64,000 nucleotides of DNA from Planctomycetota bacterium (GTDB lineage Bacteria; Planctomycetota; B15-G4; JADJEK01), in the NCBI GenBank assembly GCA_044225365.1, contig JBGAIQ010000004.1:191048-255047 (forward strand), in the 5' to 3' direction. The notes under the pieces are model-generated. The model did no database searches. It was not told where the DNA came from and saw only the letters and a list, made by a program, of their open reading frames with translations. The translations under genes were made by a program, and so were the position numbers. Below are positions 24,351 through 30,606 of the stretch, piece by piece. Positions within the stretch are counted from its first letter, which is position 1, and each line of letters begins with the position of its first letter.

Positions 24351-25664
24351 ATGTCGATTTCGATGCCCATCGTCACCGCCGCGGCGATCACTTCTCTCTT
24401 CGGAGCGACCCTCGACGCGCGCGCCCAAACGATCGTCGCAAAGGGTGACACGACGATCGATCGAAAGCAGGAGCCCGGCGCGTCGCCCTTCGGCGACCTG
24501 ATCGGCGAGCACACGCTGACGCCCACGAGCGGCGGTGAATCGCGATTGCGCTTCGTGCTCATGCGATCGAATCCATCGACGGTTCCCAGTGCCGGCGCCG
24601 GAGAGACCGATCCGCCGCAGGGCGTGAAGGCGGTCGATCGTTATCTCTTCGAGGTCCTGCGCAGTGTCGATCGCGATCGACTGCACGATCTCGTCGCGAT
24701 CGACCAGCTCGTCACCCGCGTGAGCGAGGACACGAGGACGATCGAGCTCGAGCATTCCATCGAGGTACAGGGACCGGAGGATTCGTTACGACGCGCCCTT
24801 TCGAAGCTGGACGCATTCGTCGCTGCGAACCGCACCCTCATCACGGTTTCGATCACGGCGGCGAAGAAAGCCACTCCCGCGGCGAACGATACGGCGCTCG
24901 TTTCGATCGTCGACCAGGCTGCATGCGACGCGATCCGTTCGGCCATGAAGTCGGCGTCGCACGAGGTGCTCAGTGCCCCGACTCTCACGGTCTACGGCGG
25001 ACAACGCGGCGAGATCTCGGCGTTGAACGACACTCCCTACATCGCCGATTTCACCGTCACGGCCACGAAAGACGCACTCATCGCCGACCCCGTGATCAAA
25101 GTGCTCAAAGAAGGGATTCGCTTCAGCGTCACGCCGATCGTCGACGTCGATGGAGAGCACCTCCATCTCGCGATCGAGTCCTGGATCGGTCGCGTGCGCC
25201 GACCGATCCGGGAATTCCAGACGACGCTCGCGGCTGGGGCCGCGCAGGTCACATTGCAATTGCCGGAAGCGCTCGAGACGCGGTGGAAGAGCGATTTCCT
25301 CGCAATGTCCCGCGACGACCACGCGGTGCACGTCGAGAAGATCCGTTTCGTCGAGTTCGACGACGAGAAGGGCGAGATCCCGGAGGAACTCGAGTTGCTG
25401 ATCGAGGTCCGGCGCGCGACACCTCCTTCGAACGACGGAGGTCCCTTCAGCGGAATGGTGATCGGCGTGGACGCCTCGAACCTCCGCGTCTTCGTCACCT
25501 GTCGAGACTCGAGTGGGAAGACGACGACACTTCGAGCGAATCAGATCTCCATCTTCCGGGGAAACGACCCCGTGGGCGAATGCGTGGTTCTCGAGAATCT
25601 AGGCGGAGTGCTCGTGTGCAGGCTCGCGAAGGGAGAAGCCCGCGCGGGCGATTCCGCAAAGTGA
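24351..25664 (+). CDS. Exported protein with a partial secretin-like segment
   Basis: Signal peptide; VLSAPTLTVYGGQRGEI...ADPVIKVLKEGIRFSVTPIV...TLQLPE resembles the GspD/PilQ core. Confidence 0.55.
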   Translation: MSISMPIVTAAAITSLFGATLDARAQTIVAKGDTTIDRKQEPGASPFGDLIGEHTLTPTSGGESRLRFVLMRSNPSTVPSAGAGETDPPQGVKAVDRYLFEVLRSVDRDRLHDLVAIDQLVTRVSEDTRTIELEHSIEVQGPEDSLRRALSKLDAFVAANRTLITVSITAAKKATPAANDTALVSIVDQAACDAIRSAMKSASHEVLSAPTLTVYGGQRGEISALNDTPYIADFTVTATKDALIADPVIKVLKEGIRFSVTPIVDVDGEHLHLAIESWIGRVRRPIREFQTTLAAGAAQVTLQLPEALETRWKSDFLAMSRDDHAVHVEKIRFVEFDDEKGEIPEELELLIEVRRATPPSNDGGPFSGMVIGVDASNLRVFVTCRDSSGKTTTLRANQISIFRGNDPVGECVVLENLGGVLVCRLAKGEARAGDSAK

Positions 25665-25766
25665 ACATGCGGGCGGGCGCGGCGGCCCATTTCTCGTGAT
25701 TTGGGAACCGAAGCGAGGAGTGATTTCGGGTAGGCTCTGGCCTTTTCCGCCTGTTGGAGCCTCTTT

Positions 25767-27422
25767 CTGTCTGCATCATCCGACTCGTCCGCGTTCGCCT
25801 CCCTCGGACTCTCCGCCGCGTCACTCGACGCGCTCGCGCGGGCGAACTACACGGCTCCAACCCCCATTCAGCAGAAGGCCATTCCGCTGGCTCTCGAGGG
25901 CCGTGACATCATTGGTTGCGCTGCAACCGGCACCGGGAAGACGGCGGCGTTCCTCCTCCCCATCATCGAGAAACTGACGGGAAAGCGCGGCCCGCGCGCT
26001 CTCGTCCTCGCCCCCACTCGCGAACTCGTGCAGCAGATCGCCGAGCACCTCGAACGCTTCGGCGCATCGCGCGGAGTGCGCGGCGCCGAGATCATCGGCG
26101 GCGCGTCGATGGGCAATCAGGTCGCGCAACTTCGCCAACAGCGCGAAGTCATCATCGCGACGCCGGGCCGCCTCCTCGATCACCTCGAACAACGCACCGC
26201 GCAGCTCGACCAGGTCGAGATCCTCGTCCTCGACGAGGCCGACCGCATGCTGGACATGGGCTTCATGCCGCAGCTCAAGCGGATCATGCGCTACGTGCCC
26301 GAGCGTCGGCAGACGATGCTGTTCTCCGCCACGATGGCGGGGGAAGTCGCGGAATTCGCGAAGCGCGCACTCCACGATCCGGCCCGCGTCGAGATCGAGC
26401 GCAGCGGGACGGTCGCCCGTAACGCCACGCAAACCGCTTTCGTGGTCAACGAAGCCGACAAGACCGCTCTCCTCCTCGCGCTGCTCTCGCAGGACGAAGA
26501 GACCACGCTCGTCTTCGCACGCACGCAGCGCCGCGCGGACAAGCTCGCGAAGACGCTCGCTCGGCTCGGACATCGAGTCGCGCGGATCCACGGCGGACGC
26601 ACGCAAGCTCAACGCGAGCACGCTCTCGATGGTTTCAAGTCGGGGCAGCATCGCGTGCTCGTCGCCACCGACATCGCGGCGCGCGGCATCGATGTGAGCG
26701 ACATCGGTCACGTCGTGATGTTCGACATCTCGCGAGCGCCCGAAGACCACGTCCATCGCGTCGGACGAACGGCCCGCGCCGAGGCCGTGGGTCACGCGTC
26801 GACGTTCGTCGCGCACGAGGAACTGCGCGCGCTGAAGGACATCGAACGCTTCCTGCGTACTTCGATCACTCGCGCCGACCTGCCCGATCTCTCGACGTGG
26901 CGCGCCGAGATCGAGCGCGCGCGGTTCGCCGCCGAATCGCAGCATGCATCTCATGCGCCGCGCGCACACTCCAACGCACCACGACGCGGACCGCCGCGCG
27001 AGAAGTCGCGCGGTTATGGAAAGTCGCACGGCAACCCGGGACATTCCGCAAAGCCGGGGCACGGCGGCAAGAAATTCGGAAGTGGACGCCGCGGATTCGC
27101 ATTCATCGGCCGGTCGAGTTCGTCGCCCCGCCCGAGTTCCGCCCCACGCTCGAATCATTTCGATTCGCCCGAACGCCGGTCCGACGCGCCCGTTCGCAAC
27201 GACGAACGCGGACATTTCCGCAATGAACCGCGGCGCGAACACTTCGAGGATCGACCGACAGGAAAAGGCGCGAATACCTTCAGTCGCGGTCCCTATGAAG
27301 GCCGACAAGACAACGTAGACCGCAGAGGTTCCGATTCCCGCCCCTCGGGTCAGAATGCTCCACGCGGCCGCTTCGACGCTCGCAAGAATCGTCCCTACCG
27401 TTCCCGAGGAGAGCGATCCTGA
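25767..27422 (+). CDS. DEAD-box RNA helicase (RhlE-like), probable CTG start
   Basis: Q motif PTPIQ, ATGTGKT, PTREL, TPGRL, DEAD, SAT, ARGID, HRVGRTAR; basic tail; GGAG 7 nt upstream of CTG 25767. Confidence 0.9.
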   Translation: MSASSDSSAFASLGLSAASLDALARANYTAPTPIQQKAIPLALEGRDIIGCAATGTGKTAAFLLPIIEKLTGKRGPRALVLAPTRELVQQIAEHLERFGASRGVRGAEIIGGASMGNQVAQLRQQREVIIATPGRLLDHLEQRTAQLDQVEILVLDEADRMLDMGFMPQLKRIMRYVPERRQTMLFSATMAGEVAEFAKRALHDPARVEIERSGTVARNATQTAFVVNEADKTALLLALLSQDEETTLVFARTQRRADKLAKTLARLGHRVARIHGGRTQAQREHALDGFKSGQHRVLVATDIAARGIDVSDIGHVVMFDISRAPEDHVHRVGRTARAEAVGHASTFVAHEELRALKDIERFLRTSITRADLPDLSTWRAEIERARFAAESQHASHAPRAHSNAPRRGPPREKSRGYGKSHGNPGHSAKPGHGGKKFGSGRRGFAFIGRSSSSPRPSSAPRSNHFDSPERRSDAPVRNDERGHFRNEPRREHFEDRPTGKGANTFSRGPYEGRQDNVDRRGSDSRPSGQNAPRGRFDARKNRPYRSRGERS

Positions 27423-28288
27423 ATCTTCAAGCCACACAACCCGATCGTGATCCGACGCGCCCCTGGACCTGGGGTTTCTTCGACTGGCTGCCGGGCGAAG
27501 GACGGACGCTCTTCTGGATCGTCCTGATCCACGTCCTCTCGATCGTTGGAATCGTCCTGTTCCCGCTTCCCAGTCTGAACGTCGGGCTCGCGGCCTTCGC
27601 GCTCGCCTTCCTCGGCGGGCTCGGAACGACCGTCGGTTATCACCGCGCACTCGCCCACAAGGCCGTCACGCTGAACCCGGTCGTACAGTTCTGCCTCACG
27701 TTCCTCGCGATGTTCAACGGCTCGGGCGCGCCCGCGACCTGGACGTCGAATCATCGCAATCACCACATGAACGCGGAGACCGAGGCCGACGTCTCGAGCC
27801 CGCGCATCGGCGGTTTCTGGTGGGCGCATCTCCGCTGGCTCTGGCAGTCCTCGCAGAGCTCGCTCACGCGCTACGCACCCGATCTCGACACGCCGTACTG
27901 GCGCTTCTGGACCAAGGCGCAGCCCTTCGTCGTCGCTGCGTCGCTGTTCGTCGGTCTCCCCTTCGGCTGGCAGGCGTTCTTCTGGATGGGCGCGATTCGC
28001 CTCACCTTCTCGCTGCACGCGCAGTGCACCGTGAACTCGATTGCCCACATGAAGAAGGGCGTCGCTCCGGGCGAGGATTCGTCGCAGAACCTTCTCTGGC
28101 TCGGCTTCTTCCAGTGGTTCCAGGGTGAGAACTGGCACGGCAATCACCACGCCGAACCCAATTCCGCGCAGCTCGGCTGGAGCTGGCGTCAGCCCGACCT
28201 CGGCTGGGCCTTCATCTACGTGATGGAGAAGGTCGGCCTCGCGAGCCGAGTCCGCCGGCGCAAGGACGTGGCGCGAAAAGCGGCCTGA
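27419..28288 (+). CDS. Membrane fatty-acid (delta-9-like) desaturase, probable CTG start
   Basis: Three His boxes HRALAH, HRNHH, HGNHH; the first box lies upstream of the first ATG; AGGAG 7 nt before CTG 27419; CTGA overlap. Confidence 0.88.
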   Translation: MNLQATQPDRDPTRPWTWGFFDWLPGEGRTLFWIVLIHVLSIVGIVLFPLPSLNVGLAAFALAFLGGLGTTVGYHRALAHKAVTLNPVVQFCLTFLAMFNGSGAPATWTSNHRNHHMNAETEADVSSPRIGGFWWAHLRWLWQSSQSSLTRYAPDLDTPYWRFWTKAQPFVVAASLFVGLPFGWQAFFWMGAIRLTFSLHAQCTVNSIAHMKKGVAPGEDSSQNLLWLGFFQWFQGENWHGNHHAEPNSAQLGWSWRQPDLGWAFIYVMEKVGLASRVRRRKDVARKAA

Positions 28289-28310
28289 CCCCCCCCGAAT
28301 CGATCGACTC

Positions 28311-28348
28311 GAAGAGCGGCCTTCACCTGCGGGTGCGGCCGCTCTTTC
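28311..28348 (+). terminator. Probable intrinsic terminator
   Basis: AAGAGCGGCC...GGCCGCTCTT stem followed by TCGTT. Confidence 0.6.
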
Positions 28349-28497
28349 GTTGCATCGCACGCTCGCTCGAGAATCCCGCGAGAAGCGTGGCGGGTTCCGA
28401 ACTCGCTTTCCGACCCTTTCTCCTGAACCCGAATCGCGCGATCCCGATGCGGCACGTCGCCGCCGAGGGATCTCGCACCTCGAACAGGAGAAACGTC

Positions 28498-30606
28498 ATG
28501 TCCCGCCTCCAGAGTCGCCTCGCGCTTTCCTTCGCCGCCTGCCTCCTCGGTGCCTCGCACGCGCTTGCGACCGACGACGACGCGAACGACGCCCAAACCG
28601 CCTGGGTCTGGTATCACGATCAGACACCTTCGCAGATCACGGCCCTCATCCAACAGGGTTATCGCGTCACGAATATCGAAGTCGACTCCGCATCCCCCGC
28701 GCTGTTCACCGTCGCGATGGTGAAGAACTCCGGTTCGTACGCGAAGACCTTCTGGTGGTACTACGGACAGGACTCCGCGACGATCGCCACCGAGCTCGCC
28801 CAGAACAGCGCGCGCCTGATCGATCTCGAACCGTACAACCTGAACGGTCAGGTGCGTTTCGCCGCCGTCATGGTGAAGAACACCGGCGCCGACGCAAAGA
28901 ACTGGTGGTGGGTCGCGAGCTCGAATCTGAACGATGTCTCGACGACACTGACGCAGAACGGCGCGCGTCTCACCAAGCTCGATGAAGTCACGATCGGCGC
29001 GAACACCTACTACGCCGCGATCATGATCCAGAACTCGGGCGCCGACGCGAAGAGTTGGTGGTGGTACCACGGCGTCGACGGCTCGTTCGTCGCGACGCAG
29101 CTCGGTGCGACCGGCGCCCGTCTGCTCGATCTCGCGCGGCGGTCGGATGGACTCTTCGACGTCGTCCTCGCGCAGAACGACGAAGGCTTCCATTGGTGGT
29201 GGTACTACGGCCTCGACGAGGCCGCGCTGAATGCGGAAATGGCCCAGACCGGCTCACGGGCCCTCTGCGTCCAGAAGTCGAATTCGTTCCTCGGTGCGAC
29301 CTACTCCGCCGTGCTCATCAACGACTCGAACGCGCTGACCACGACGGTCGGCGACATCTTGCGCACCGGCACCGATGGCGTTTCGGGCCTCTACCTCAAG
29401 GAGATCAACGGTCCCGTCCTCGCGAGCCTCGAGGAGCAATACGTCTTCGAGCCCGCGAGCACTTTGAAGACGCTCGTCCATGCCCATGCGATGAAGCAAG
29501 TCGCGCTCGGCACGGTCTCGCTGAACCAGCCGATCCTCGTCGACACGGGGCTCACCGGTTCGTGTCCGAACGGCACGCAGCCCGTCATCGAGTCCCTGCA
29601 GGTCGTCCTCACCAAGATGATGCAGAACTCCGACAATGCCCGCACCAAAGCGGCCGTCGACTTCTTCGGGCAAGCGAACATCAACGCCACCGCGGTCGCG
29701 CTCGGCATGACCCACTCGCAGATCAACCATGTATTCGGATGCGGCGGTCCGATTCCGAATCAGCTCACACTCGTCGACGGCGACGCGCTTCACGAGGCCG
29801 TCGCGAATGGATTCCTGGGCGCACAGAAGCAGACGTTCCACGACATCATGCTGTCGAGCGTCCCGGGATATGCGGGCGGCCTCCTCGGACAGGTGATCGA
29901 TCAGGAAGCCGCGGCGATCGGCGTCAGCAACGCGATGAAGGCGCAGTTCATCACGCTCGCCGAGATGGCGTACAAGGGCGGCAGCTACACGATCTTCCCG
30001 GGTCCGAAGGAATACCGATCGGTCCTCTCGTACGTCGATCTCCCCTTCCTCGCGCAGTTCTTCGGAAACACCGTGGTCACGCATCATCAGTACGTCACCG
30101 GGATCTTCGTCCACGCGGCTTCGAACGGCTTGACGGTCGACGGCGTCGTCAATCACGCCGCATCGGAGCTGCTGCGCGATGAGATCCATGCGGCACTCCT
30201 CACCTGGAAGTCGAACTGCGTCGCGTTCAATGCGTCCTACGGTTCGGGCAAGGCGGGAACCAAGGGCGTGCCGACTCTCACGTCGAGCCAGCTCCCGAGC
30301 CTCGGCGCGACGTCGAGCATCACGCTCGGCAACGGCAAACCCGGAGCCGCACCGCTGCTCTTCGTCGGCTTGAACAGTTCGAACCAGAGCTTCGACGGCG
30401 GCAAGTTGCTGGTCCAGCCGCAACTCATCCTGACGCTCCCCGTGATTCCCCAGAATGGAACGCTCTCGATCGCGGGCACGCTGCCGGCGGATCCGACGCT
30501 CTGTGGCGTCACGATCTATCACCAGATGATGTTCGCCGACGCGGGCGCGTCCGGCCCGTATCACACGGCGCAGACCGCGGGTCTCGCGCGCACGCTCGGC
30601 AACTGA
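28498..30606 (+). CDS. Secreted protein: Trp-rich tandem repeats (BTRD1-like) + serine beta-lactamase-like domain + shared C-terminal domain
   Basis: AGGAG SD, signal peptide; about five W(W)Y..G...RL repeats; EPASTLK (SxxK), SDN, KGG. Confidence 0.8.
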   Translation: MSRLQSRLALSFAACLLGASHALATDDDANDAQTAWVWYHDQTPSQITALIQQGYRVTNIEVDSASPALFTVAMVKNSGSYAKTFWWYYGQDSATIATELAQNSARLIDLEPYNLNGQVRFAAVMVKNTGADAKNWWWVASSNLNDVSTTLTQNGARLTKLDEVTIGANTYYAAIMIQNSGADAKSWWWYHGVDGSFVATQLGATGARLLDLARRSDGLFDVVLAQNDEGFHWWWYYGLDEAALNAEMAQTGSRALCVQKSNSFLGATYSAVLINDSNALTTTVGDILRTGTDGVSGLYLKEINGPVLASLEEQYVFEPASTLKTLVHAHAMKQVALGTVSLNQPILVDTGLTGSCPNGTQPVIESLQVVLTKMMQNSDNARTKAAVDFFGQANINATAVALGMTHSQINHVFGCGGPIPNQLTLVDGDALHEAVANGFLGAQKQTFHDIMLSSVPGYAGGLLGQVIDQEAAAIGVSNAMKAQFITLAEMAYKGGSYTIFPGPKEYRSVLSYVDLPFLAQFFGNTVVTHHQYVTGIFVHAASNGLTVDGVVNHAASELLRDEIHAALLTWKSNCVAFNASYGSGKAGTKGVPTLTSSQLPSLGATSSITLGNGKPGAAPLLFVGLNSSNQSFDGGKLLVQPQLILTLPVIPQNGTLSIAGTLPADPTLCGVTIYHQMMFADAGASGPYHTAQTAGLARTLGN

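Follow-up and report, generated by a model that had tools for sequence, protein, structure and literature searches.

How are two neighbouring planctomycete genes translated when neither offers an ATG, GTG or TTG codon ahead of its essential residues? The question is raised by a DEAD-box RNA helicase gene and the membrane fatty-acid desaturase gene that directly follows it in the window, i.e. the whole stretch of 64,000 nucleotides analysed here (contig JBGAIQ010000004.1, Planctomycetota bacterium, assembly GCA_044225365.1). An earlier note, made from the letters of this DNA alone, had proposed that both genes start at CTG. Neither gene has a canonical start (ATG, GTG or TTG), the sequence is real, and the CTG codons, the Shine-Dalgarno (SD) motifs before them and the stop/start overlap between the genes are conserved in relatives. 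We consider it probable, on the strength of these sequence comparisons, that helicase and desaturase are intact and functional and form one bicistronic unit, initiated at CUG and coupled at a CUGA overlap. The source genome (G000, genus g1) comprises 6.53 Mb in 103 contigs, has 65% GC and is 94% complete; the window belongs to its contig C34. The elements concerned are the following.

25731 to 25733, forward strand: TAG stop upstream in the helicase frame, read from the sequence.
25756 to 25759, forward strand: GGAG, Shine-Dalgarno-like, 7 nt ahead of CTG 25767.
25767 to 27422, forward strand: DEAD-box RNA helicase gene, with a proposed CTG start, 551 codons, a TGA stop and an RG-rich basic C-terminal tail.
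27407 to 27411, forward strand: AGGAG within the 3' end of the helicase gene, 7 nt ahead of CTG 27419.
27419 to 27422, forward strand: CTGA overlap, made up of the proposed desaturase start CTG (27419-27421) and the helicase stop TGA (27420-27422).
27419 to 28288, forward strand: gene of an SCD-like (acyl-CoA-type) membrane fatty-acid desaturase, with a proposed CTG start and 289 codons.

The helicase frame is open from stop to stop over 25734-27422, and its earliest in-frame ATG, GTG or TTG is the GTG at 26028. The translation holds the strings F...TPIQ, AATGTGKT, PTREL, DEAD, SAT and HRVGRTAR, which we take to be motifs Q, I, Ia, II (DEAD), III (SAT) and VI (HRxGRxxR), and the first three of them all lie 5' of GTG 26028. 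Pfam DEAD (PF00270) is matched with 185.7 bits (cut-off 26, E 7e-55) over open-frame residues 43-207, and Helicase_C (PF00271) with 106 bits (cut-off 23.5, E 1.6e-30). Frame, translation and Pfam agree in this with the earlier claim that the helicase has no canonical codon before GTG 26028 despite its upstream motifs, and the GGAG that had been placed 7 nt from CTG 25767 is there in the sequence. Among NCBIfam equivalogs the best matches are CshA (407 bits, cut-off 646) and RhlE (374 bits, cut-off 743), and the protein passes none of the curated cut-offs for CshA, RhlE, DbpA, SrmB, CsdA or RhlB; with all equivalog scores below cut-off, it is a helicase of the RhlE/CshA kind and not a named orthologue. 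Counting CTG 25767 as residue 1, helicase residue 9-10 aligns with position 1-3 in three references, the models of CshA and RhlE and the CshA chain 5ivl, hence the CTG-based N-terminus corresponds to the usual beginning of such a helicase. CTG 25737 is the one other near-cognate codon 5' of the conserved Phe, and relatives have not kept it.

Concerning the desaturase, the frame is open over 27299-28288 and its earliest canonical start is ATG 27710. Use of that codon would drop residues 1-97, including the invariant W16 and His box 1 (H75, R76, H80). In an alignment of 10 sequences (A3) the His boxes H75/H80, H112/H115/H116 and H240/H243/H244, as well as N206/H210, are invariant. Open frame, translation and alignment are thus at one with the claim that no canonical start precedes ATG 27710 and that His box 1 lies upstream of it; likewise, AGGAG 27407-27411 can be read 7 nt from CTG 27419, and that codon overlaps the helicase TGA, as had been said. 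The upstream stop needs correcting: TGA 27224, which the earlier note had named, is in frame, but the nearest stop is TGA 27296-27298, which it had missed. In a phmmer comparison the protein matches SCD1 (PDB 4ymk) with E 2e-12 over residues 28-276, and the nearest Atlas clusters carry PF00487 (scores 0.96-0.97). NCBIfam DesA_fam gives 81 bits against a cut-off of 400, and Pfam FA_desaturase yields no match in hmmscan even at E<=10. The His boxes HxxxxH, HxxHH and HxxHH and the NxxxH of mammalian SCD1 (4ymk, 4zyo) are found in the operon desaturase as well; the latter, however, is bacterial and shorter, and its substrate may be acyl-CoA or acyl-lipid.

Could such gaps arise by chance? In-frame ATG, GTG and TTG together account for 5.03% of the sense codons in 1475 long open reading frames (ORFs) of G000, a frequency at which runs of 87 and 97 codons without a canonical start are each an event of about 1%. 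It should be noted that the window was chosen for its missing starts, so that the real test lies in the comparative data and not in this estimate.

For the helicase, 12 genomes of the family were compared, and orthologues were found in only 6 of them (genera g1, g4 and g6), i.e. in G000 and in five g4 and g6 genomes with 66-71% identity. In all six the CTG stands exactly 9 codons ahead of a conserved Phe (FASLGL), an in-frame stop lies 1-11 codons 5' of the CTG, and ATG, GTG and TTG are absent between that stop and the Phe. The spacing is GGAG-N6-CTG in the five other orthologues and N7 in G000, so that the motif accompanies the codon in 6/6. The start codons of orthologues, a check named beforehand, thus speak for the proposal, with CTG and GGAG kept throughout the three genera. 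In alignment A2 the CTG is invariant and one of very few such positions before the conserved coding block; almost nothing is shared in the 8 codons that follow it. In G008 the frame before the Phe is reduced to GTT CTG plus 8 codons, with CTG as the sole near-cognate candidate. Any change of the first base would turn CTG into ATG, GTG or TTG, and yet the C persists, which suggests selection for a weak start. The pattern, seen in about three independent lineages, is suggestive of such selection and not proof of it. Among the more distant helicase matches (<=53% identity), 15 of 24 have ATG, GTG or TTG within 10 codons of the Phe, and the remaining nine have longer or unclear N-termini.

A conserved "start-codon desert" past the CTG was considered and rejected: the first canonical codon of the helicase comes at +87 in G000, +47 in g6 and +18 in g4, and that of the g6 desaturases already at +8, +10 and +37. 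As separate observations on the leader, in g6 an A follows the CTG of the helicase (CTGA), and in G005 (L046) a two-codon mini-ORF, ATG TCC TGA, ends on the CTG. Its ATG is replaced by ACG in G010 and AAG in G011 and is unconserved in g1 and g4, and the mini-ORF is probably a coincidence.

The junction between the two genes can be followed in G000 and in three g6 genomes (G005, G010 and G011), where the pair is present. It reads CTGA in four out of four, each time behind a purine-rich SD-like motif, which in g6 is AGAGAGG at the same place as AGGAG. The CTGA is kept although the helicase tails differ (ending in ...RGERS or ...RGHA before the stop). The G010 desaturase, like that of G000, lacks a canonical start ahead of the conserved PWTW, the first one in G010 being at codon 37. 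In g4 the desaturase does not adjoin the helicase; in place of CTG AAT/AAC, TTG AAT is read in G008, and G003 has a TTG a few codons upstream. Conservation in relatives thus supports the proposed two-gene unit as a whole, with a CTG start for each gene, GGAG or AGGAG before it and the CTGA overlap.

What does the junction look like further away? A metagenome search with the desaturase alignment gave 80 loci, of which 11 have a DEAD-box helicase match (41-50% identity), in 10 cases upstream and on the same strand; a search of the genome contigs with the single desaturase protein as query gave 3 distant loci only. The nine distant junctions that were read are ATGA (L122, L152), GTGA (L151), TGATG (L129, L143, L144) or TAA followed by GTG within 0-1 nt (L103, L127, L135). 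Since the desaturase starts on or beside the helicase stop in 9/9, a coupled start looks ancestral there. The CTGA looks like a weak-codon version of this ancestral coupled start, CTG 27419 sitting where relatives have their normal one. The helicases of the distant pairs start with TTG in seven of eight readable cases and with CTG in the eighth (L151:1718-1790), a single contig in which the CTG stands two codons before the Phe, where seven related loci have TTG, and whose open helicase frame has no other canonical codon. For 7/8 of these "lineage B" helicases the score against the operon helicase slightly exceeds that against the paralogue C60, so that their orthology to the operon helicase is marginal. 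In L012 (G022:C6:121862-125668) the pair is reversed, with the desaturase first, a gap of about 30 nt and canonical starts for both genes; the helicase-desaturase linkage recurs, in G022 in a different arrangement.

How would such a unit work? Translation of the helicase would begin by de novo initiation at CUG 25767, a weak near-cognate codon aided by the well-placed GGAG, and would terminate at UGA 27420-27422. Ribosomes that have just terminated would reinitiate on the overlapping CUG 27419 of the CUGA, aided by the AGGAG 7 nt upstream. With one weak initiation event serving both genes, both proteins would be made at a low level and desaturase synthesis would depend on helicase translation. 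Initiation at the CUG codons, coupling of the two genes and low output are what we infer. CUG initiation in E. coli reaches about 1-2% of AUG (PMC5499595), termination-reinitiation at 4-nt overlaps has been experimentally validated in E. coli and Haloferax (PMC6728339), and coupling was lowered by IF3 overproduction in one study summarised in PMC12548453. A helicase-desaturase fusion by -1 frameshifting was also considered and set aside; no slippery heptamer was read at the junction, and relatives have ordinary starts there.

Several points weigh against CUG initiation of the pair. The G005 desaturase has an ATG 8 codons past the CTG and the G011 desaturase a GTG 10 codons past it, both before PWTW. 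In the g4 helicases an ATG lies 18 codons past the CTG, though its use would lose the conserved Phe. In G000 only, a second near-cognate codon, ATC 27416, stands ahead of the desaturase and is a possible alternative start. The helicase CTG is confined to three genera, which makes effectively about three independent observations. Genome-wide, the 87 CTGA junctions are indistinguishable from chance, C being frequent as the third base of codons. One of the strain contigs described below may hold a variant at CTG, 40 of the 124 difference rows having been examined, and among the runs listed as holding the locus none is an RNA run.

Near-cognate candidates are met again elsewhere in the desaturase family. 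Of the 80 metagenome desaturases, eight lack any canonical codon from the upstream stop as far as the conserved N-terminal motif. Seven of the eight (L098, L106, L107, L123, L130, L140 and L145) carry GGAG or GGAGGA, then 4-5 nt, then ATT ACC RAA TCC, with L130, L140 and L145 nearly identical; L128 shares the ATT motif of the seven and has a later GTG in addition, and L083, which also has ATT candidates, stands apart. In L098, L106, L107 and L128 the frame is closed by a stop 4 codons before the ATT. In a quick tree, on which the placement of the desaturases rests, the start-less ones occupy three places: the clade of family f1, L083, and an ATT clade close to sequences labelled Acidobacteriota. 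ATT appears to be the start codon in a second clade of the desaturase family. In L098, L106, L107 and L128 we also noted a promoter-like motif, TTGACA-N16/17-TARAGT, directly before the ATT start region, a position that implies a very short leader.

Does the weak start respond to the state of the ribosome? The alternative that survives best, tentative and on balance doubtful, treats the operon as a sensor of initiation fidelity, as the earlier note had proposed; published work makes such a switch plausible. Under normal conditions IF3 and the mature 30S would reject CUG and the operon would be nearly silent. Cold or faulty 30S maturation would relax proofreading and raise CUG initiation, and with it the helicase and, via CUGA, also the desaturase. 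The helicase might then repair RNA folding and ribosome assembly, and the desaturase might restore membrane fluidity. IF3 fidelity is reported to be strongly temperature-sensitive, which has been proposed to explain the cold translation of AUU-infC; in vitro, on the other side, low temperature reduced the activity of GUG and AUU mRNAs (both PMC5499595). Deletion of rbfA, ksgA or lepA raises CUG initiation, and assembly defects are worse at 25 C (PMC6868393); the cold sensitivity of a DEAD-box mutant has been traced in part to membrane fatty-acid composition (PMC7392221). Within the locus, such a sensor would fit the weak C of CTG, which persists even though each of the three possible changes would create a canonical start. 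It would also fit the recurrence of near-cognates in the module (CUG, the apparent AUU of the desaturase clade, UUG and CUG in distant helicases) and of the linkage itself in distant lineages, reversed in G022.

Other data argue against the sensor. The runs carrying the locus come from metagenomes of bioreactors and sludge, which are not evidently cold environments, and a weak start may merely fix a low constitutive level. The infC gene of G000 (G000:C26:6043-6543, reverse strand) has an apparent ATG start, four residues ahead of the point where the alignment with the model begins. In many bacteria infC begins at AUU, AUC or AUA. With ATG in G000, the AUU autoregulation of infC to which the earlier note had appealed is not visible in this genome. 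A search of Rfam over 25300-28500 at E<=1 found nothing but a chance match to a snoRNA, on the opposite strand. The leader consensus fold places the SD inside a stem, and single-sequence z-scores of 0.38, 0.55 and -0.13 make it no stabler than shuffles; given non-significant z-scores and three effectively independent lineages, no leader structure is claimed.

Concerning the proteins, among cold-adaptation helicases (CsdA, SrmB, RhlE, CshA, CrhR) the operon helicase is closest to the CshA and RhlE models and to 5ivl, and for CshA of S. aureus, itself a DEAD-box helicase, a functional connection with membrane fatty acids has been published (PMC7392221). In contrast to the known cold helicases and desaturases, the scores are here below cut-off and cold induction is only assumed.

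Are the two genes special at all? If start choice were relaxed throughout the lineage and CTG widely used, they would not be, and we regard this as unlikely. A genome scan with a home-made codon-usage model over 3106 confident ORFs found only 19 with at least 25 coding-like codons before the first canonical start; the desaturase is at the top of this list, and the rest mostly resemble ordinary ATG genes. The scan is crude and missed the helicase itself, which leaves some room for relaxed starts and makes the result a rough bound only on the frequency of start-less genes. The tRNA set is ordinary (one tRNA-Leu(CAG), three CAT tRNAs) and contains no special initiator tRNA reading CUG, and the helicase paralogues in G000 (2/2) have canonical starts. 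SD-like motifs precede 27% of 938 constrained-start genes against a background of 10%, and GGAG at -16..-5 is found in 13.4% of the same genes against 4.2% of random positions. GGAG thus being uncommon in G000, its conservation before both CTGs is notable; the 16S tail (on contig C6) carries the usual CCUCC.

Two further observations came out of the genome-wide work. The ORF ranked second in the scan (G000:C35:2531-3049, forward strand) has about 45 coding-like codons before its first canonical start (TTG, codon 99), for which a further non-canonical start or a frameshift may account. Separately, the 11-mer GGATCACCTCC of the 16S 3' tail occurs at nine places outside rRNA (contigs C16, C23, C42, C51, C59, C62, C75, C84 and C98), copies that may be related to CACGGAGG-type repeats.

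Could the CTG codons be artefacts? An assembly or sequencing error, or decaying pseudogenes, with true ATG, GTG or TTG starts or starts hidden by a frameshift, might be suspected in an assembly of 103 contigs and 94% completeness, and out-of-frame TTG 25754 and GTG 25696 do lie upstream. This is highly improbable. The sequence was checked against Logan contigs, not raw reads. Those of run X1, possibly the source sample, are identical to the window over 25600-26121 and 26663-27800. The helicase start is also spanned by contigs with about 95% identity, which stem from two other studies (X3 and X5; X4); among 40 of 124 difference rows, these strain contigs have no indel and no difference at 25720-25807, and contig 23 of X4 matches 27398-27498 with 0 differences. 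Six genomes from three genera share the CTG, neither frame is interrupted, all catalytic motifs are conserved, and the out-of-frame TTG and GTG are not kept in relatives. The operon sequence is real and not an assembly error, and the explanation by error or decay is largely refuted.

Synthesis of N-terminally truncated proteins from GTG 26028 and ATG 27710, the first ATG, GTG or TTG of each frame and the starts that standard gene callers would annotate, is hardly credible, since the helicase would lose the presumed Q motif, motif I (ATP-binding loop) and Ia, the desaturase would lose the part aligned to the first ~70 aligned SCD1 residues with His box 1, and the upstream codons are conserved as protein in relatives.

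The surroundings of the operon can be described briefly. The flanking genes are unrelated to it: no family is assigned upstream, and the genes downstream encode a beta-lactamase-fold protein and a kinase/FGE protein. One further feature lies behind the desaturase stop:

28331 to 28353, forward strand: terminator-like hairpin with a T-rich tail, 3' of the desaturase stop; weak evidence, suggestive only.

Terminator-like sites in the region number 2, against 2.5 expected from shuffles, and are thus not above chance; a sigma-70 promoter scan gave 0 sites.

How does a CUG-initiated, coupled pair compare with known systems? The closest parallel for the starts are the AUU codons of E. coli infC (encoding IF3) and pcnB, likewise near-cognate starts fixed by selection, with an SD before them and output expected to depend on IF3 (PMC5499595). 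At our locus, too, no canonical start is present before the essential residues, and CTG and SD are conserved at the homologous position. The codon, however, is CUG and not AUU, two consecutive genes are affected, and the products are a helicase and a desaturase and not an initiation factor, hence there is no self-feedback as for infC. For the junction, the parallel is coupling at ATGA and TGATG (Huber et al. 2019, PMC6728339; reviewed in PMC12548453), which likewise involves a co-directed 4-nt overlap with an SD located in the upstream gene. The textbook forms ATGA, GTGA and TGATG are found in distant relatives of the pair, whereas the proposed restart codon here is CUG. The available text of PMC6728339 names only ATGA and TGATG overlaps, "GTGA" being absent from it, and in that of the review PMC12548453 neither "CUG" nor "near-cognate" was found. 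Among the papers listed in the literature search, judged by title and the first lines of the abstract, no helicase-desaturase operon and no conserved bacterial CUG start in either gene was found; the start-codon tables of PMC5622118 and PMC6728339 may list CUG cases.

Fixed CUG starts are very rare in bacteria; in a reconstruction of start-codon evolution, 2 of 61,358 ancestral AUG starts had become CUG (PMC5622118). Here two consecutive genes probably carry them, kept through 66-71% protein identity, and the second CUG lies inside a stop/start overlap in which relatives have ATGA or GTGA. Standard gene callers would report both proteins as truncated, without the ATP-binding loop and the first His box, respectively, or as pseudogenes. 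The locus offers a natural test case of whether reinitiating ribosomes accept CUG. If its output depended on IF3 or on ribosome maturity, the operon would tie RNA remodelling and membrane lipid desaturation to the state of the ribosome in a simple, post-transcriptional way. And if the sensor were true, the repeated near-cognate starts in this module would represent a solution that selection found more than once.

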